From a virus (lineage: Duplodnaviria; Heunggongvirae; Uroviricota; Caudoviricetes): DNA of 8,410 bases. Position 1 is the first letter of the stretch; the number at the start of each line of letters is the position of its first letter. A model generated the notes under the pieces. The model saw only the letters and a list, made by a program, of their open reading frames with translations. It searched no databases and was not told where the DNA came from. The stretch is taken from IMG/VR virus record IMGVR_UViG_2684622543_000010. One strand, given 5' to 3'. Positions 1-8,266 of the stretch are shown piece by piece. A program made the position numbers and the translations under genes.

Positions 1-70
1 TCAATGATCGGAAGTATGCCAAATCGTGATCGATTGTGATGCCAAACTGTGATCGGAGATGGATGCCAAA

Positions 71-875
<805 letters not shown>

Positions 876-971
876 ATATATATGTATTTTCTCTGTTAAG
901 CGTGAGCTACGTGAAAAATAATTTTTGGTGTGGGTATTAACTTTGCTTTATTCACGTAGAACACCGTTAAA

Positions 972-3152
972 TCATTCTTCCTCTGGATAGCTTGAACTTA
1001 AGAGCATATCCTGCGTGAACTGGTCATTAGCTGATTGATTGAAAGTAAAGAAAGATGGTTCATCTGGTCGAACGACAACTTGACCACCAAGTGAAACTTT
1101 CACTGGCTCCTGAATACGCTTACTCAAAGCACTAATTTCATCCCTCAGACCCTGAATATCTGCACTCGTTAATGCTGAATCTTGCTTAATGTTGTTTAAC
1201 TCTGGATGATTGAATCTTGCAATATTCATTGTGGCATTGTTAAACAATTCACCCATTGAACTAAAAATTCTACTCCATCCTTCGTTAATCATATTCGGTT
1301 TATTAGGGTCACCAGAATACACGGGATTAAAGTCACTACCCACACCTACCCCAGACGGATGCATATTAGCGTTTTTGACTACTTCCTGATTCATAAAATC
1401 CAGTGCTTTCTTCAATGCATATAAACCAAGAGTGACGCCTCTGATTTGTGGAATCATTGAAGCTAATGCTAACGCTGTTTCATAACCGTCATCAGCATAA
1501 CCAATTGCAAGAGCACTACCTACACCACCAGCTACACCTTTCAGTTTTCCACCACCTTTACCAGTAGCTACCTGACCAGCCACCTGATTAGCTCTTGTAC
1601 CTAACGTTGTGATTGCTCTTGTCAGGTTCATAACCCCTGTAGTAGCACTGAATAGCGTCTTTGCAGATAACGCTATAGCAAGACCTTTGACGAAGTTGAT
1701 AAAACCATCACCGACTTCATCAAGTAGTTTTCGTTTAGTGTCATCAAGGCTGTAATAGAACTTCTTAGTCTGTAAAATCCAGCCTTCAATGGTGTTATTG
1801 AATACGCGAATATCATCTACACCAGCTTTAAGCATGTCGATAAGTCCACCGATAGCATCACCAGCGATAGAAGAACTCATCCCCATTTCACTAAGCAGGT
1901 TACTCAGGCTGGATAAGAAGCCGTTTAGCTCATCCTGTGAACCTGAGAAGATTTTCACCATCGTATCATCCCAATTGTTTGCTAACTTACCTAAAGCTGT
2001 CTGAGTGCTCTTAGTGACTTCAGCCCAGCCACCCGCTTTATCAATCATCAAGCCCATCTGTTTAGCGACTTTAGGGAGAGTATCAGCGGAAAGTACCTTC
2101 CCGTTTTTCATGGCTGCATCAAGCTCTGTAGCAGTCATACCCAATGCTTCAGCGAATAGCTTAAATGCACCAGCCATACGGTCACCTAACTGCCCACGTA
2201 ATTCCTCAGCCTGAATCTTGCCCTTGCTCGCCATCTGCTCAAATGCTCTCAAAATGCCGTTTAGCTCATCGTTAGAAAGCCCCATTAAGCGACTCATAGC
2301 CGTTGCATTACCAAATAGCTCCTGTGTCTGTTCCTGTGACATAGAACCCTGAGCACCTGCTGCAAACTTAGCGTAGCTTGATAGCCCTTCAGAGATATTA
2401 AGACCTGTCTTGTCTGCTAAATTTCGAATAAATACCTCAGCTTCAGATGCTTTATCACCAAGTACAAACTTAGCGGCTCTCTGTGCGGAATCTCGTTTAA
2501 GACCTGCATTCATAATGGCCTTGTAAGCGTTAAGAGCACCCATCACAGAGTAAAATGCACCAGATAATTTAATCGCATTGCTTGCAAGATTATTAAATGC
2601 GTCGCTTGTATTGTTAATGCTGGCGGTCTTTGTCTGTGACCTGAGTTTATTCAACGTTTCACGAAGAGATTGATTTAATTTTGCAAGTTCAGCGTTAAAC
2701 TTTTCACTTCCAATATTACCAGCCTTACCGCTTAAGCTGTAATACTGTGCTTTAAACATTTTAGCCATCAGCGGATTAATATCACCAAGCTTAGACATAT
2801 TCACGCTATGCGCTGCTGTGATTGCTCTGTTTCCGCTAATTCGTGGTTGCCTTGATTGTTTTGGAGGATTAACAGTGTCATTAAATCTGGTGGCAAACTG
2901 AAATGCTTTTGTGCTTCTTGCTCTCTGCTCAATCTTGTCAAAGGTCTTATTAAACTTCCTTTCAAGCTGCCCTAAAGAACTTGTCAGATTGCTGTCAAGT
3001 TGCTTGGTATCGACCTTAAACGCTCTATTCAAATTGCGTTCAATTCTTTGTGCTGACTGCAAAGCTGCCTTTTCAACTCTTTGCAAGCCCTTAATAACGT
3101 TTTCACTGAAACTAAGTTCAACGATAAAACTATCAACTGTGAATTTGCTCAT
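972..3152 (-). CDS. Phage tail tape measure protein (726 aa)
   Basis: Long ORF; SD AGAGGTG upstream of ATG at 3152. N-terminal coiled-coil-like region, central segment typical of the tape-measure domain (RLMGLSNDELNGILRAFEQMASKGKIQAEELRGQLGDRMAGAFKLFAEALGMTATELDAAMKNGKV), Ala/Gly/Leu-rich helical composition and a glycine-rich stretch (GKGGGKLKGVAGGVGSALAIGY). Family assignment from recalled motif patterns, not a search. Confidence 0.8.
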   Translation of the reverse strand: MSKFTVDSFIVELSFSENVIKGLQRVEKAALQSAQRIERNLNRAFKVDTKQLDSNLTSSLGQLERKFNKTFDKIEQRARSTKAFQFATRFNDTVNPPKQSRQPRISGNRAITAAHSVNMSKLGDINPLMAKMFKAQYYSLSGKAGNIGSEKFNAELAKLNQSLRETLNKLRSQTKTASINNTSDAFNNLASNAIKLSGAFYSVMGALNAYKAIMNAGLKRDSAQRAAKFVLGDKASEAEVFIRNLADKTGLNISEGLSSYAKFAAGAQGSMSQEQTQELFGNATAMSRLMGLSNDELNGILRAFEQMASKGKIQAEELRGQLGDRMAGAFKLFAEALGMTATELDAAMKNGKVLSADTLPKVAKQMGLMIDKAGGWAEVTKSTQTALGKLANNWDDTMVKIFSGSQDELNGFLSSLSNLLSEMGMSSSIAGDAIGGLIDMLKAGVDDIRVFNNTIEGWILQTKKFYYSLDDTKRKLLDEVGDGFINFVKGLAIALSAKTLFSATTGVMNLTRAITTLGTRANQVAGQVATGKGGGKLKGVAGGVGSALAIGYADDGYETALALASMIPQIRGVTLGLYALKKALDFMNQEVVKNANMHPSGVGVGSDFNPVYSGDPNKPNMINEGWSRIFSSMGELFNNATMNIARFNHPELNNIKQDSALTSADIQGLRDEISALSKRIQEPVKVSLGGQVVVRPDEPSFFTFNQSANDQFTQDMLLSSSYPEEE

Positions 3153-3250
3153 TCATGTTTCACCTCTTTAAGTGTTCATATACGAAAAAGGGAAAGACTA
3201 CCGATATCACTCGATAATCTCTCCCGTAGATTTTCACCCAACCAATCTTG

Positions 3251-3457
3251 TTACCTAACCAGATAATAATTACCATCTTCACCAACAATCTGACAATCAC
3301 TTGGTAATTTATCAAGACACCACTTAGCTATTTTCCTGATTCTATTCTTTTGCTTAGAGGAGGTGAATGATTTGATTCGTTTTGGTTTGTTGGGTTGTTC
3401 TTTCAATCGTTCACTAATTGCTTTAATAAGCTCATAGCGTTCTGTTAAATCAATCAT
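3251..3457 (-). CDS. Hypothetical small basic protein (68 aa)
   Basis: ORF with ATG at 3457 preceded by AAGGTGGTGGTG (SD-like); lysine/arginine-rich; immediately upstream of the tape measure gene. No recognisable family. Confidence 0.5.
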   Translation of the reverse strand: MIDLTERYELIKAISERLKEQPNKPKRIKSFTSSKQKNRIRKIAKWCLDKLPSDCQIVGEDGNYYLVR

Positions 3458-5335: not shown

Positions 5336-5556
5336 CAAGCACCCCATTCAGAAATAAGCTTAATTCCCTGCTCAAGCTGTTCAGGGTCGTTATAGTCGAG
5401 TATTACCAGTGGCTTTAATTCGTGTTTAAGCTGGTGGATTTGAGAGGGTTTTAATCGTTTGTTTGCTTTGAGGGTCACATCTTCAAATTCAGCATCTGCT
5501 AAATTCTGTCTGATTAGGTGGCGGCCAAGTGTGGAATATTGGAACCTATAACACAT
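5335..5556 (-). CDS. Hypothetical protein (73 aa)
   Basis: ATG at 5556 overlaps the TAA stop of the upstream ORF (TAATG), with GGAGG just upstream. No recognisable family. Confidence 0.55.
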   Translation of the reverse strand: MCYRFQYSTLGRHLIRQNLADAEFEDVTLKANKRLKPSQIHQLKHELKPLVILDYNDPEQLEQGIKLISEWGA

Positions 5557-5846
5557 TAAACCTCCAATCTATCCGCCAGTTGATGGACCTTAGCGCTTAA
5601 CACCTGAATCATTGAGCAACCTGCTACTGCGGACTGTGCTTTGAGTAGTTCCAGTTGGCCCGTTGTGATTCTGATGGCCTTAGAACCCTCTGCGACGCCC
5701 TTAACGTTATCGAAAGGGCTAAGGTTTACCGACTCTTTTAAAATCTCCCCAACAAGCGCTGTGTGCTTCATATCGGGATATTTGGCTTTGATTGCTGCCA
5801 GTCGTTCAAATGCCTCTGGCAAAAGGCGCGTAACTGTGTGAGTCAT
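5556..5846 (-). CDS. Candidate ribbon-helix-helix (CopG/Arc-like) DNA-binding protein, 96 aa; first gene of the small-gene operon
   Basis: ATG at 5846 (MTHTVTRLLPEAFERLAAIKAKY...) with GGAG 9 nt upstream; the track start at 5876 lacks an RBS. N-terminus has a beta-strand-then-helix pattern (TVTRLLPEAFERLAAI) typical of RHH regulators; a second similar segment follows (AIRITTGQLELLKAQ). Pattern-based inference only. Confidence 0.5.
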   Translation of the reverse strand: MTHTVTRLLPEAFERLAAIKAKYPDMKHTALVGEILKESVNLSPFDNVKGVAEGSKAIRITTGQLELLKAQSAVAGCSMIQVLSAKVHQLADRLEV

Positions 5847-5876
5847 TGTAAAAATCTCCTTAAATCTCTTACTCAT

Positions 5877-5983
5877 ACTACAATCTTAACATCTATTTAA
5901 CATATTGTCAGTACCTCATTTACATGATACTATGGTTGTAGGGGCTGATACAGGTGCTGTTTCCTTTCACAAAAGGAAAATTA
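5877..5983. promoter_or_regulatory. Divergent promoter region between the minus-strand small-gene operon and the plus-strand small ORF
   Basis: Plus strand: -35 TTGTCA (5905-5910), 17-bp spacer, extended -10 TGaTACTAT (5925-5933). Minus strand: possible -35 CTGACA (5912-5907), 18-bp spacer, -10 TAAGAT (5888-5883). Hexamers read by eye; no experimental support. Confidence 0.35.
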
Positions 5984-6160
5984 ATGCATGATTTTTTCAC
6001 AGCAATTATTGAATCTCATCGTTTTAGCTCGTTGGGCTTTGCGGTATTTATTGTGCTATTGGTGTTTTGCGTTATGAATCGAGTCATTACAAAAAAGACA
6101 AAGCTTACAATTCGACTTAAACTTCTTCGTGTTGAGATAGAGATTTCAGTAAATAAATAG
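5984..6160 (+). CDS. Small predicted single-pass membrane protein (58 aa from ATG; 68 aa if the in-frame GTG at 5954 is used)
   Basis: The only plausible plus-strand gene; sits in an otherwise uncovered gap. AAGGA 7 nt upstream of ATG 5984; promoter-like element at 5905-5933. Hydrophobic core (LGFAVFIVLLVFCVM) followed by a basic amphipathic tail (TKKTKLTIRLKLLRVEIEI). Ends 9 bp from the convergent minus-strand ORF. Confidence 0.4.
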   Translation: MHDFFTAIIESHRFSSLGFAVFIVLLVFCVMNRVITKKTKLTIRLKLLRVEIEISVNK

Positions 6161-6169
6161 CTGGTGGCC

Positions 6170-6466
6170 TTACCGGCACTTTCCCTTGATAATATTGGTG
6201 GCCCTCAGATTACCGGGGTCACCGTCTTTTAATCGTAGCTGGTGGACTGAATCCCATAAATCGTAATGATACAGCACCGCAAACTTCAAAGCGTCAATCT
6301 TTAAATCTGTCACATCATCGACGAAATAATAATCCCTCCCTTCTTTCTTCGGTCGAATCCGGTAAACTTCCCCGTGAGTATCTTTCATCAAGTAACCTTC
6401 ACGAGAAATGCTGTAACGTCTGAGTAAATAGTCACGGTATTTTCTCTCGCCATTATAAGTTTTCAT
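6170..6466 (-). CDS. Hypothetical protein (98 aa)
   Basis: ATG at 6466 overlaps the TAA stop of the upstream replication-initiator-like gene (TAATG), with GGAGG 9 nt upstream. No recognisable family. Confidence 0.6.
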   Translation of the reverse strand: MKTYNGERKYRDYLLRRYSISREGYLMKDTHGEVYRIRPKKEGRDYYFVDDVTDLKIDALKFAVLYHYDLWDSVHQLRLKDGDPGNLRATNIIKGKCR

Positions 6467-7221
6467 TAAAACATTCCTCCACCATAAACACGTCTGACTT
6501 TAACTTTTTCTTTCTTTGGCTCGGTGTGAGTTTTCTTTTTTGGTGTAAAAGTAAAATCATCGTCACTATCATCAAAGTCATCGAGGTCACTAACCTTGTT
6601 CTTTAGCTTCGCATTTCTGAATCTTTCTTTAATTTCTGCTTTACGCTGTTCACGTTTNNNNNNNNNNNNNNNNNNNNNNNNNNNNNNNNNNNNNNNNNNN
6701 NNNNNNNNNNNNNNNNNNNNNNNNNNNNNNNNNNNNNNNNNNNNNNNNNNNNNNNNNNNNNNNNNNNNNNNNNNNNNNNNNNNNNNNNNNNNNNNNNNNN
6801 NNNNNNNNNNNNNNNNNNNNNNNNNNNNNNNNNNNNNNNNNNNNNNNNNNNNNNNNNNNNNNNNNNNNNNNNNNNNNNNNNNNNNNNNNNNNNNNNNNNN
6901 NNNNNNNNNNNNNNNNNNNNGCTCTGTTAAAACCTCCGGTACTTCATCAAGTGAATAAACTTTAATAACACACTGATTGCTTGCAACGTTAGTTTTCTTG
7001 ATTAAACCATGTGCCTCAAGTTGTTTCATACATGCAATCACGGATGTTCTTGTGATTCCAGCATACTGACCAAGATGAGCATATGAAGGGGTATAATATT
7101 GCCCCTTATCGTGATAAAACTTTTGTTCATTCAACATGACAGTGTAAATAATACGGTCGGCAGCTTTAACGCCATTAGTCATCTGATAAATACGGTCATC
7201 AAACATGTGGAATTTTTCCAT
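6466..7221 (-). CDS. Replication-initiator / replisome-organizer-like winged-HTH protein (about 251 aa as given), interrupted by an N-run
   Basis: ATG at 7221 (MEKFHMFDDRIY...) with AAGGAA 7 nt upstream; the track's upstream extension is rejected. N-terminal ~100 aa has the helix-turn-helix pattern of phage O-type / DnaD-type initiators (RIIYTVMLNEQ...YYTPSYAHLGQYAGITRTSVIACMKQLEAHGLIKK). C-terminus is highly charged (KKK..., DLDDFDDSDDDF). The middle of the protein is unknown because of the N-run. Confidence 0.55.
   Translation of the reverse strand: MEKFHMFDDRIYQMTNGVKAADRIIYTVMLNEQKFYHDKGQYYTPSYAHLGQYAGITRTSVIACMKQLEAHGLIKKTNVASNQCVIKVYSLDEVPEVLTEXXXXXXXXXXXXXXXXXXXXXXXXXXXXXXXXXXXXXXXXXXXXXXXXXXXXXXXXXXXXXXXXXXXXXXXXXXXXXXXXXXXXXXXXKREQRKAEIKERFRNAKLKNKVSDLDDFDDSDDDFTFTPKKKTHTEPKKEKVKVRRVYGGGMF
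6658..6920. other. Run of 263 N (assembly gap or masked sequence) inside the replication-initiator-like CDS
   Basis: Seen directly. Flanking coding segments are in the same reading frame across the run as given, so the N-run may replace real sequence of about this length; its content cannot be assessed. Confidence 0.95.
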
Positions 7222-7603: not shown

Positions 7604-8266
7604 TTAGCTCAACCTTTGAGCAATCCTGTATGACGTGCTCAGAGGCATTCTGAGAGCATCTGCAATGCACTTAATGGGTTTTCCTTGCCTGTATAGTTTT
7701 ATGAAGCTGTCGAGCGTCTCAGGTGGGTAAATGGTGGGTCTTCCTCTCAAGCCTCCTCTGTTAATGATGGTTAACGGTAATAGCGTGTCACCACAGCAAA
7801 CCGTCTGTGTAATTTCGTGCTTACGTGGTTCTTTTTTAAAAACAACGACTGCACTAGGAAACGGTGAACGAATAGTAAGCCCGTTATGGCCTGCTGGTGG
7901 AAGGTATTTAACTGCACGATGAAGAATACGGATTTCATGACAGTGGTTATTGCTGTAAATGTGCCTAAGCCAGTAGCTGGTGTTGGCTCTATGCGGTATC
8001 AGGAAAGCTACTAAATCCGCTTCAGACGCTTTTAAGAGGAACGACGGAATATCGCTGTACGGCAGGTTACAGAAGACCTTTTCACTAACCCATGATTGAC
8101 GGCTTATATCATTGGTGAATCGTGGTAACAGCGTGTCATGCTCAGTTGCAGCACCATCTAGCGTAAAACCAAATTCACGGTGTAAGTTCTTAAATAACAA
8201 CAATGGAGTTCTCCAGTAATCAGAACCCCCATGATGTTTCCCGATTAAAATATGCTCAATTGACAT
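7604..8266 (-). CDS. Phage Dam-family (T1/HP1-type) N6-adenine DNA methyltransferase homolog with a C-terminal resolvase-type helix-turn-helix extension (220 aa)
   Basis: Family hallmarks in order: DYWRTP, FTLDGAAT, a catalytic-motif position reading NLPYS (canonical is NPPYS), and SPFPSAVVVF. The C-terminal ~60 aa (RGGLRGRPTIYPPETLDSFIKLYRQGKPIKCIADALRMPLSTSYRIAQRLS) resembles the GRP-linker plus HTH of serine recombinases (Hin/resolvase type). No SD upstream of ATG 8266 (AT-rich leader). Motifs recalled from memory, not searched. Confidence 0.8.
   Translation of the reverse strand: MSIEHILIGKHHGGSDYWRTPLLLFKNLHREFGFTLDGAATEHDTLLPRFTNDISRQSWVSEKVFCNLPYSDIPSFLLKASEADLVAFLIPHRANTSYWLRHIYSNNHCHEIRILHRAVKYLPPAGHNGLTIRSPFPSAVVVFKKEPRKHEITQTVCCGDTLLPLTIINRGGLRGRPTIYPPETLDSFIKLYRQGKPIKCIADALRMPLSTSYRIAQRLS

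Follow-up and report, generated by a model that had tools for sequence, protein, structure and literature searches.

We found, by comparing allelic copies, that positions 5984-6160 of the window, by which we mean the whole 8,410-nt stretch of viral DNA that was analysed, are a real, conserved protein-coding gene of unassigned family. The evidence strongly supports that its product is a single-pass inner-membrane protein of 58 residues, that it has its own near-consensus sigma-70 promoter, and that it is a core gene of an integrative, satellite-like element. Toxin, exclusion and lysis functions are possible for this small protein. Our tentative preference, a low-confidence guess, is that it is a phage-facing effector in the membrane, made in the resident state and of the superinfection-exclusion type. 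The features are collected in Table 1.

Table 1. Positions of the small gene, its control region and its neighbours in the window
Feature	Position	Strand	Details
First gene of leftward operon, 96 aa	5556..5846	-	ATG 5846 after AAGGAG; tandem ribbon-helix-helix-like
Leftward-operon promoter	5883..5911	-	-35 CTGACA 5911-5906, 17 nt, TG, TAAGAT 5888-5883
TTAACAT direct repeats	5886-5892 and 5897-5903 (5886..5903)		11 bp apart; candidate operator
Small-gene promoter	5905..5933	+	-35 TTGTCA 5905-5910, 17-nt spacer, TG 5925-5926, TACTAT 5928-5933
GGCTGATAC	5943..5951	+	invariant in eight allele types; predicted transcript 5' end
Allelic cassette	5953..6192	+	5'UTR hairpin, ORF, 3' hairpin, last ~7 codons of convergent ORF
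SD hairpin TTTCCTTT-caca-AAAGGAAA	5960..5979	+	AGGA (5974-5977) paired with upstream pyrimidine tract
Small gene	5984..6160	+	ATG 5984 to TAG 6160, 58 aa + stop
N-tail	residues 1-14	+	includes invariant ESHRF, nt 6011-6025
TM helix	~residues 15-32, nt 6026-6079	+	basic stretch then follows
Predicted beta-hairpin	residues 41-56, nt 6104-6151	+	basic C-tail
Weak hairpin	6160..6177	+	overlaps both stop codons; begins with Chi site GCTGGTGG, 6160-6167
Convergent 98-aa ORF	6170..6466	-	last of upstream minus-strand operon (Dam, HTH protein, 98 aa)
G+C-rich hairpin, 10 bp, then UCUUUU	6196..6231 (hairpin 6196-6224)	+	folded in window and L001

An earlier, sequence-only reading of this DNA had proposed an ORF of 58-68 amino acids; of the two forms, the one of 58 residues read from ATG is conserved and the one of 68 residues is not. 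The ORF listing of the window gives 5954..6160 on the plus strand, which is 68 amino acids when read from GTG. The in-frame ATG follows the AGGA at a spacing of 6 nt. Since alleles B, C and D have an in-frame stop codon shortly upstream of this ATG, only the 58-residue form is conserved. We rejected the GTG as a start: it has no SD sequence, transcription is predicted to begin about 14 nt away, and alleles B, C and D have the stops just mentioned. The remaining plus-strand ORFs of the window fall within minus-strand genes, which agrees with the proposal that this is the sole plus-strand gene. Annotated relatives and gene calls likewise show it as the only plus-strand gene conserved inside the element. 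The distance of 9 bp between its stop codon (6158-6160) and the convergent ORF was also as described.

Taken by itself, neither the length of the ORF nor the promoter match is above chance. Plus-strand ORFs of similar length are common in the window as shadows of minus-strand genes, two promoter-like sites were found where 2.5 are expected, and PGAP omits the small gene in several genomes. These observations would fit a chance ORF in an AT-rich intergenic spacer and no gene. We take the ORF and its promoter as real because they are conserved: the protein is under purifying selection, and the divergent promoter pair stands at the same place in diverged elements. The copies fall into eight allele types (A, A2, B, B2, C, C2, D and E) with 33-98% amino acid identity, between which the small-gene DNA has diverged beyond blastn detection. 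All eight keep the reading frame, the motif ESHRF, the TM helix and a C-tail of alternating hydrophobic and polar residues, and the motifs are conserved despite saturated synonymous sites. In every unsaturated within-class pair dN/dS was 0.10-0.30 (NG86). Indels are in-frame only, the natural length variants being 3-residue LLV repeats; the SD sequence, ATG and promoter are conserved; and other genomes annotate the product, as WP_000506009.1. As far as sequence analysis reaches, this refutes the chance-ORF reading, to which we give next to no probability.

Disruption in close relatives, which had been named as counting against the gene, was not the pattern seen: of 129 copies in complete E. 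coli genomes, about 126 have the full length, with ~52/53 intact for allele A and ~74/76 for allele B. The earlier suggestion of a moron-type insertion was not supported. The small gene occupies the same position in every element version examined, the most diverged (D type) included, and a presence/absence comparison found that the allele varies among elements and that presence does not. The gene has a promoter of its own and, in most alleles, also a clean terminator, but the promoter is not an independent module; it is half of a central divergent pair in which its -35 box overlaps that of the leftward promoter.

The hydrophobic helix and basic tail that had been noticed in the product were both recovered. 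The maximum Kyte-Doolittle 19-residue mean was 2.51, at residue 17, and the 15 residues after the TM helix carry a net charge of +6. No other product of the window exceeds a 19-residue mean of 1.6, so that this is the sole predicted membrane protein there. The predicted topology has the N terminus outside and the C terminus inside. An AlphaFold2 model (pLDDT 73) consists of a helix at residues 2-37 and strands at 41-47 and 50-56, which suggests that the basic cytoplasmic tail probably folds as an amphipathic beta-hairpin. The ESHRF motif, strictly invariant and polar, stands at the membrane edge of the predicted protein. We rejected a lipoprotein or signal-peptide reading, since by inspection no lipobox was seen and the Cys is not conserved.

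A consensus scan found TTGTCA-17-TACTAT plus TG upstream of the gene, in keeping with the extended -10 promoter that had been proposed, and transcription is predicted to start near 5940. The same place holds TTGTCA-17-TATTAT with TG in one related element (L001), TTGTCA-17-TAATAT with TG in another (L018), and TTAACA-18-TATAAT with TG in a diverged one (L010). The leftward promoter has TTGACA as its -35 box in relatives and CTGACA in the window. Extended -10 elements stand on both sides of the promoter pair, even in the diverged D-type element, and the two promoters form the arms of an imperfect palindrome (5878-5893 / 5926-5941). The TTAACAT repeats lie in the spacer of the leftward promoter, just upstream of the small-gene -35 box, and the variants ATAACAT and GTAACAT are kept in other alleles. 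We infer that the repeats are a candidate operator for the product of the first leftward gene. For that gene we rejected a 106-residue form, as AAGGAG precedes ATG 5846 and relatives are annotated with 96 residues. AlphaFold2 modelled the 96-residue protein as two beta-alpha-alpha repeats (pLDDT 63), and the best PDB matches were F-plasmid relaxosome chains, DndE and single-chain Arc, none of them significant. From this medium-confidence model and these non-significant fold matches we read the protein as tandem-RHH-like. In seven of the eight allele types examined, its gene is always the one that diverges from the small gene, and in the D type the homologue is second in the operon. The leftward operon runs from this gene through the tape measure and Dit-like genes.

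We compared this arrangement with that of P22 immI, where the ribbon-helix-helix repressors Mnt and Arc are encoded beside the divergent, overlapping promoters Pant and Pmnt. Both have divergent overlapping promoters, an RHH-type gene on one side and short repeats as the likely operator. In the element, the gene on the opposite side is for a membrane protein in place of a repressor or antirepressor, and the RHH-like protein is tandem and single-chain, with a topology nearer to F TraY (a match that is not significant, the DNA binding being putative). Another reading is that the small gene is part of the switch itself, either through the act of transcription (occlusion of the leftward-operon promoter, together with collision with read-through from the minus-strand operon upstream) or through the protein as a membrane tether or sensor by which a regulator of the element is held or released. 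Consistent with this, the overlap of the -35 boxes is conserved across the element family, the unit stands as a head-on block with a minus-strand operon on either side, GGCTGATAC shows no variation where the transcript begins, and the small gene adjoins the operon of the RHH-like gene in every element examined. We nevertheless consider a switch quite unlikely: the dN/dS values and the invariant ESHRF show that the protein is selected and not the transcript alone, the libraries that were searched hold no precedent, and the cassette alleles swap freely against the RHH alleles, which is unexpected if the two proteins bind specifically to each other.

This swapping was evident when elements were compared pairwise. 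Identity in the cassette was bimodal, at either 99-100% or 48-61%, irrespective of the identity of the flanks. Elements L001 and L006 are 73% identical in the RHH gene and 100% identical in the cassette, and L003 and L004 are 98% identical in the RHH gene and 49% identical in the cassette. This indicates that the 5'UTR, ORF and 3' end together are a sharply bounded cassette that recombines independently of its flanks, and the bimodal identity suggests an arms-race-like pattern. We found no co-variation of the small-gene allele with the alleles of the tape measure, the RHH gene or the 98-residue ORF, and alleles A and B each occur with similar and with different tape measure proteins. Given this independence from the tape measure allele, the data point to no partner among the proteins of the element.

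The 3' end differs between alleles. The counterpart of the weak hairpin at 6160..6177, GCTGGTGG-loop-CACCAGC, is perfect in A2, B2, C, C2, D and E, and a T-run follows it in B2, C and C2, which makes it terminator-like. For alleles A and B, the small-gene transcript likely ends at the G+C-rich hairpin listed last in Table 1, among the final codons of the convergent ORF; this hairpin was found by folding, its loop being too long for the consensus scan. These structures support that the small gene has its own terminator in most alleles.

At the 5' end, the SD sequence was less accessible than it is behind shuffled upstream sequences, the counts being 4/300 for allele A, 0/300 for B and 3/300 for E. 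Alleles C and C2 showed a weak effect and A2, B2 and D none, so that three of the eight types were not significant. The hairpin arms, which MAFFT left out of register, vary between alleles yet remain complementary. Fold energies of the whole leader were not better than those of shuffles (z +0.15 to -2.4), and our claim for the leader is limited to local SD pairing in some alleles.

A strong promoter with an occluded SD sequence is commoner with toxic peptides than with exclusion proteins. This combination would fit a peptide like the type I toxins, excess of which would damage or depolarise the inner membrane, with a benefit to the element either in stability (addiction) or through the death of infected cells (abortive infection), and which the SD-covering hairpin together with antisense or convergent transcription would restrain. 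Type I toxins of Enterobacteria include Hok/Gef, Ldr, TisB, ShoB, ZorO and DinQ. Like these, the small protein has fewer than 60 residues, is hydrophobic with one TM helix and a charged tail, is encoded on a mobile element and has a leader that hides the ribosome-binding site; the 5'UTR structure and ORF moving together as a cassette would also fit. It departs from them in its invariant polar motif and in its tail, predicted to be a beta-hairpin; it falls in no described toxin family, and it has no match in Pfam, a library that includes Hok/Gef, Ldr and TisB. The invariant, polar ESHRF also suggests a specific contact over generic membrane damage.

For alleles A and B, an overlap of about 60 nt between the transcript and the 3' end of the convergent mRNA is probable and would fit the toxin reading, but the D, A2 and E types lack the convergent gene, so that 3' overlap is not conserved. 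In L001 and L018 there is a weak promoter-like site on the minus strand, about 110 nt downstream; against it, the site scores 9/12, has no TG and is within coding sequence, and in the window no such site was found in or just after the ORF, the antisense candidate being below threshold. Among the loci examined, two have IS insertions in or at the small gene, and two independent insertions that silence it could be taken to mean that it is harmful. By a rough estimate, two hits in about 130 elements are not above the element-wide IS load, and we therefore rejected the insertions as a sign of counter-selection. Overall we regard the toxin reading as unlikely.

The element itself is chromosomal, integrative and about 11 kb long, and occurs in E. 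coli, E. albertii, Shigella and Citrobacter, and about 2.4% of complete E. coli genomes carry it. The small gene has the same syntenic setting in E. coli, E. albertii and Citrobacter, in one further genome series and in one IMG/VR contig. Its convergent neighbour, the 98-residue ORF, varies in presence and is missing from elements of the A2, E and D types. Felixounavirus phages have a module syntenic with the tape measure/Dit-like genes of the element and in part 88-93% identical to them in nucleotide sequence. The element resembles a satellite of virulent Felix O1-like phages. Sharing this module with Felixounavirus gives the small gene a phage-linked context. In the literature we found no described satellite or defence island with this gene set and nothing on WP_000506009.

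A satellite could use a membrane protein to interfere with the holin or antiholin of its helper and so set the lysis time to its own advantage, as does LidI of the PLE satellites of Vibrio cholerae. LidI is a TM protein without a family, 66 residues long in PLE1 and PLE2, initially unannotated, synteny-conserved in all PLEs and detected only after phage infection (PMC7182436). By this published description (PMC7182436) the two are alike, since the small protein is also a family-less TM protein missed by annotation, its gene keeps its place in all members of a satellite-type element connected with a virulent myophage (here with a putative helper relation), and it is the sole TM protein of an element that resembles a satellite of virulent Felix O1-like phages. 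Unlike the post-infection-only LidI, the small gene has a promoter that looks activator-independent and faces away from the structural operon. We found no endolysin, spanin or other lysis gene in the window or annotated relatives, and thus none of the adjacent genes of a holin or lysis cassette; the protein has no similarity to anything in phages, and the satellite status of the element is itself putative. We consider a modulator of lysis timing very unlikely.

Homology searches placed the small protein in no described exclusion, toxin, holin or defence family. Profiles of Pfam, PHROGs, PADLOC and NCBIfam gave no match (E <= 0.01 for Pfam, NCBIfam and PADLOC), and the PADLOC defence models recognised 0 families among 10 element proteins, the small protein and its neighbours. 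A tblastn search of 50,697 phage genomes also gave no match. An HMM search run exhaustively over 1.84 billion representative proteins yielded just 4 clusters, every one from the same element. Foldseek of the model against viral structures found none better than E = 1.4, and Rfam over 5500-6600 gave one chance-level match and otherwise no family.

Prophages encode membrane proteins for superinfection exclusion, for example HK97 gp15, T4 Imm and P22 SieA. The small protein resembles these Sie proteins in being a small inner-membrane protein of a mobile element with its own promoter, which is directed opposite to the inducible genes; production of the protein in the resting state is plausible, and its allelic diversity is consistent with an arms race. 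It differs in having no sequence or profile similarity to Sie families (PHROGs, Pfam and tblastn of the 50,697 phage records), in having one TM helix and 58 residues, and in being encoded by a gene of the element core, not an accessory one; here exclusion is putative. Against the exclusion reading stand also the lack of a fold match or phage homologue, an SD occlusion that is not found in all alleles, and the modest confidence with which the neighbouring protein is read as RHH-like.

Under the exclusion reading, the divergent promoters would be occupied alternatively, by one polymerase at a time. Binding of the RHH-like protein to the TTAACAT repeats would shut its own promoter and leave that of the small gene free, which would make the small-gene transcript the RNA of the resting, integrated state, with translation kept low by the SD-covering hairpin. 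The protein would then reside in the inner membrane of element-carrying cells, where the ESHRF edge may engage the ejection machinery of an incoming phage, or a host membrane protein that the phage needs. This engagement would block or modify infection by competing phages, and discrete alleles would be shuffled among element backbones as in an arms race. If the element is a satellite, exclusion of its own helper would defeat its purpose, and the target would have to be other phages.

We also considered that the protein might be the membrane gatekeeper of an undescribed class of satellites of virulent Felix O1-like phages. The ESHRF motif at the periplasmic edge would sense the tape-measure/ejection complex of the helper or the membrane perturbation that accompanies it. 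In response, the cytoplasmic beta-hairpin would lift the control on the overlapping divergent promoters, so that the element would leave its resting transcript and express the leftward operon, with its own tape measure and Dit-like proteins. We regard this as a highly improbable extension. Our preference remains, tentatively, an exclusion-type effector.

Small membrane proteins of mobile elements routinely escape annotation, and such proteins are often the interface of the element with incoming phages or with the host envelope. The small gene described here is well defined, with a 58-residue product, a five-residue invariant motif, discrete natural alleles and a compact regulatory region, and for this reason direct testing is feasible with plasmid-borne cassettes and a phage panel. 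It marks the control centre of an apparently uncharacterised element of about 11 kb, whose tape measure and Dit-like genes have been exchanged with virulent Felix O1-like phages. Should this element prove to be a satellite or a tail-interference defence island, the small gene would be the first handle on how it stays quiescent and how it meets phages.

We found that the length of the small plus-strand ORF is not above chance in the AT-rich sequence of the window, and neither is the match of its promoter (two promoter-like sites found, 2.5 expected). Therefore the case for a gene rests on comparison. ORFs of 56–67 aa occupy the identical position in relatives and fall into discrete allele types. 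Allele A occurs in the window and L003 (the related locus of strain E24377A), A2 in E. albertii, B in related loci L001, L002, L004, L005 and L006, and B2 in Citrobacter and E. coli; the others are C, C2, E and D, a distant form of 63 aa. The allele products are 33–98% identical to the window copy. Residues M1, E10-S11-H12-R13-F14, L25-L26 and I35 are kept in every allele type, and I8, L17, G18, K46, E51 and I52 in nearly every one. DNA identity between allele classes is 48–61% with synonymous sites saturated. Within classes, dN/dS (NG86) was 0.23–0.30 for A versus A2, 0.10 for B versus B2, 0.10–0.11 for B versus E and 0.19 for C versus C2. A survey of 5,426 complete E. coli genomes showed the allele-A query region intact in 52 and interrupted by IS5 in 1 more; of 76 genomes with the allele-B cassette, 74 have it in full with an identity of 99% or more. 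In L007, which carries allele B, an IS3-family element is inserted between the Shine-Dalgarno sequence (SD) and the start codon. PGAP annotates the gene as WP_000506009.1 in some genomes and omits it in others. As judged by these sequence comparisons the small gene is a real protein-coding gene; within the limits of sequence analysis, a chance ORF is ruled out.

Features of the window and of related loci (L-numbers)
Feature	Location	Strand	Detail
IS21-family element end	1-129		left end of window; truncates Dit-like gene
Tail module	71-3457; L001 7980-11408; also in L025		small protein upstream of tape measure protein, tape measure protein, Dit-like
Tape measure gene	972-3152	minus	726 aa
First leftward-operon gene	5556-5846	minus	96-aa product
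Leftward operon promoter	5911-5883	minus	C/TTGACA-17-TG-n-TAAGAT
Small-gene promoter	5905-5933	plus	TTGTCA-17-TG-n-TACTAT
TTAACAT repeats			two, 11 bp apart, in minus-strand promoter spacer, directly upstream of plus-strand -35
GGCTGATAC	5943-5951		predicted transcript start
SD hairpin arms	5960-5967 and 5972-5979		TTTCCTTT and AAAGGAAA
SD AGGA	5974-5977	plus	upstream of ATG 5984
Post-stop hairpin	6160-6177		degenerate version
10-bp hairpin + UCUUUU	6196-6231		within last codons of convergent ORF
Chi site	1525-1532	minus
Chi sites	5430-5437, 6160-6167, 6238-6245, 7893-7900	plus
Masked	6658-6920
Dam-family methyltransferase	7604-8266	minus	HTH_7 at residues 175-215
Small serine recombinase	L001 16935-17504	plus
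Small serine recombinase	L003 10313-10861; L004 10258-10806	minus
Region right of small gene, D type	L010 10193-11530		1.3 kb without notable ORF
Strong promoter-like site	L010 11100-11127		TTGACG-16-TATAAT
Terminator-like hairpins	L010 11273-11294

The small protein is the only window product with a hydrophobic segment of transmembrane grade (KD19 maximum 2.51 versus at most 1.31 for every other product). In four alleles the 15 residues after the helix carry a net charge of +4 to +7 and those before it 0 or -1. Since positive charge is concentrated after the helix, the predicted topology is N-out/C-in. An AlphaFold2 model built on a 14-sequence alignment has one long helix at residues 2–37 and a beta-hairpin at 41–47 and 50–56 (mean pLDDT 73; hairpin lower, 55–68). 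ESHRF lies on the helix immediately ahead of the membrane core and, by the predicted topology, at the periplasmic edge. The tail keeps a hydrophobic/charged alternation in every allele despite differing residues. Length variants gain or lose in-frame LLV units within the helix, presumably by slippage at a 9-nt direct repeat, and thus transmembrane length is polymorphic in the population. The allele-B protein occurs at 58, 61, 64 or 67 aa; copies P0003, P0005, P0006 and P0014 have one or two units extra, or one missing.

Searching 5.8 billion clustered proteins with a profile gave 33 matching clusters, and an exhaustive HMM search of 1.84 billion representatives gave 4. All are from Escherichia, Shigella, Citrobacter or other enterobacterial assemblies, and every match looked up sits within the same element, as do the copies in one species-representative genome and one IMG/VR contig. 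Pfam, PHROGs, PADLOC and NCBIfam gave no match, BFVD offered no similar fold, and tblastn against 50,697 phage genomes was likewise negative. By these searches the family is unnamed and without detectable relatives beyond the element; a small bitopic membrane protein on a mobile element is of a familiar kind.

The window is part of an integrative element of about 11 kb in E. coli chromosomes. Relatives (88–92% identity) lie in the interval from wrbA to ymdF or from tonB to yciI, near lpxL/mdtG or near yecN/cmoA, depending on the strain. The genes follow one fixed order: first a large serine recombinase, next a 'phage baseplate'/Dit-like protein, and then the tape measure protein, several small unknowns, the 96-aa protein, the small ORF on the plus strand, either a 96–98-aa protein with an HTH_36 protein or a 260–278-aa protein, often a Dam methylase, and a small serine recombinase at the end. 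The sequence-only reading was accurate in its description of an ORF with a hydrophobic helix and a basic tail, of a promoter-like element whose -10 (with TG) is extended, and of the 9 bp that separate the ORF from its convergent neighbor. Of its range of 58–68 aa, the 58 aa from ATG 5984 stood; the 68-aa form from an upstream GTG was rejected because in-frame stops right before the ATG in other alleles show that it is not conserved. Its proposal of a moron-type insertion was the wrong frame, since the small gene is fixed in the control region of the element and part of its core.

Window positions 1-129 are 96–98% identical to sequence beside istA of ISSso4 on Shigella sonnei plasmids, and the Dit-like gene has 103 aa in the window versus 255–261 aa in relatives. 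The family is often hit by insertion sequences, with ISEc12, IS66, IS3, IS2 and IS5 in other copies. The right-end recombinase (resolvase/invertase type, Mpi-like by NCBIfam) differs among strains in its orientation to the remainder of the element, which suggests an invertible segment. At its C-terminus the Dam-family adenine methyltransferase carries a resolvase-type HTH (E = 2e-4, under the Pfam cut-off), an unusual fusion if real.

The small-gene promoter and that of the leftward operon, which runs to the tape measure and Dit-like genes, stand back to back with overlapping -35 boxes in an imperfect palindrome. L001 and L018 have the same pair with better hexamers, and the diverged L010 has it with -35 boxes adjacent rather than overlapping; the -10 is extended on both sides in every case. 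A2 and E elements have a shorter intergenic region and retain a TG-n-TAAAAT motif. GGCTGATAC is invariant in all eight allele types; sequence on either side of it diverges. The 96-aa protein has no Pfam or NCBIfam match. Its AlphaFold2 model (pLDDT 63) contains two beta-alpha-alpha repeats, and its best PDB matches, all non-significant, were F-plasmid relaxosome chains (which we take to be TraY), DndE, single-chain Arc and RHH antitoxins. With moderate confidence, this model points to a single-chain tandem ribbon-helix-helix DNA-binding protein. Such a protein would bind the TTAACAT repeats, repress its own promoter and spare that of the small gene. That the small gene itself acts inside this switch, as a transcriptional block or membrane tether, is quite unlikely.

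In the window the SD lies inside the second arm of a hairpin, AAAGGAAA pairing with TTTCCTTT. The arms differ in other alleles yet remain complementary: UUCCUU/AAGGAA in A2, AUUCCCUU/AAGGGGAAU in B, CCCC/GGGG in B2 and CCCCU/AGGGG in C. Compared with 300 shuffles of the upstream sequence, accessibility of the SD was significantly reduced in A (4/300), B (0/300) and E (3/300); occlusion was weak in C (33/300) and C2 (49/300) and absent in A2, B2 and D. Occlusion is thus real for the allele of the window; among the alleles it is common without being universal. An occluded SD would suit a type-I-toxin-like peptide; however, we found no convincing antisense RNA candidate and the polar motif is conserved, and we consider this reading rather unlikely.

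Directly 3′ of the stop most alleles have a GCTGGTGG-loop-CACCAGC hairpin, which with its T-run is a textbook terminator in B2, C and C2. The stronger 10-bp hairpin of the window, also present in allele B, leads us to predict a transcript that starts near 5940, ends near 6231 and is about 290 nt long. The convergent gene is not always the neighbor: in the D-type element its place is taken by 1.3 kb free of ORFs. An antisense effect on it therefore cannot be the conserved function. This stretch of L010, the most diverged element, might serve as a replication origin or give rise to non-coding RNA.

In 40-nt windows, the window is 90–100% identical to L001, L002 and L004 up to 5952 and from 6193, and only 32–57% identical in between. 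Across eight loci the identity of this cassette is either 99–100% or 48–61%, whatever the identity of the flanks. Thus, on sequence comparison, 5′UTR hairpin, ORF and 3′ hairpin move between element backbones as one unit. Two Chi sites (GCTGGTGG), at 6160 and 6238, lie at its right-hand edge. By the polarity of RecBCD and Chi these would stimulate recombination to their left, and so, we infer, across the cassette. The 8.4 kb contain five Chi sites, four of them on the plus strand, versus 0.11 expected from shuffles (0 of 200 shuffles had five). In A, A2, B2, C, C2, D and E the post-stop hairpin has a Chi site as its left arm; allele B, which lacks this hairpin, retains a Chi site some 65 nt farther downstream. 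The Chi sites may explain the recombination boundary, and they may shield a linear or rolling-circle form against RecBCD.

The functions offered by the sequence-only reading (toxin, superinfection exclusion, lysis-related) were reasonable. Five features together constrain the answer, and they fit best a membrane effector of the superinfection-exclusion type that faces phages and acts in the resident state, a possibility that we tentatively favor. The small protein is the element's only predicted membrane protein. Its promoter, strong and apparently activator-independent, is directed away from the structural operon and would compete with that operon's promoter, and its translation is probably damped. 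The invariant polar motif at the predicted membrane edge argues for specific contact and against generic membrane damage. The discrete alleles, shuffled independently of every neighbor, argue that any specificity partner would lie outside the element. By analogy the context would also fit a LidI-like lysis modulator, but orientation and promoter do not (PMC7182436), which makes this very unlikely. The probability that remains belongs to something else.

The order of the tail module is that of Felixounavirus garuso gp117-119, and many Felixounavirus genomes are 92–93% identical in nucleotide sequence to window 356-791. The element contains no capsid, terminase or lysis genes. It looks like a satellite of virulent Felix O1-like phages, or a tail-interference island against them. 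An in-silico study described a 544-bp locus associated with the tape measure protein, that the virulent phage vB_EcoM_DE7 exchanged with E. coli chromosomes in which PHASTER sees no prophage (PMC11069274, 2024); the chromosomal partner may be the same element. In the literature searched we found no description of an element with this gene set, and it appears to be undescribed. Much of what makes the small gene interesting is contextual: it belongs to an apparently undescribed element whose tape measure/Dit-like module is common to virulent Felixounavirus phages.
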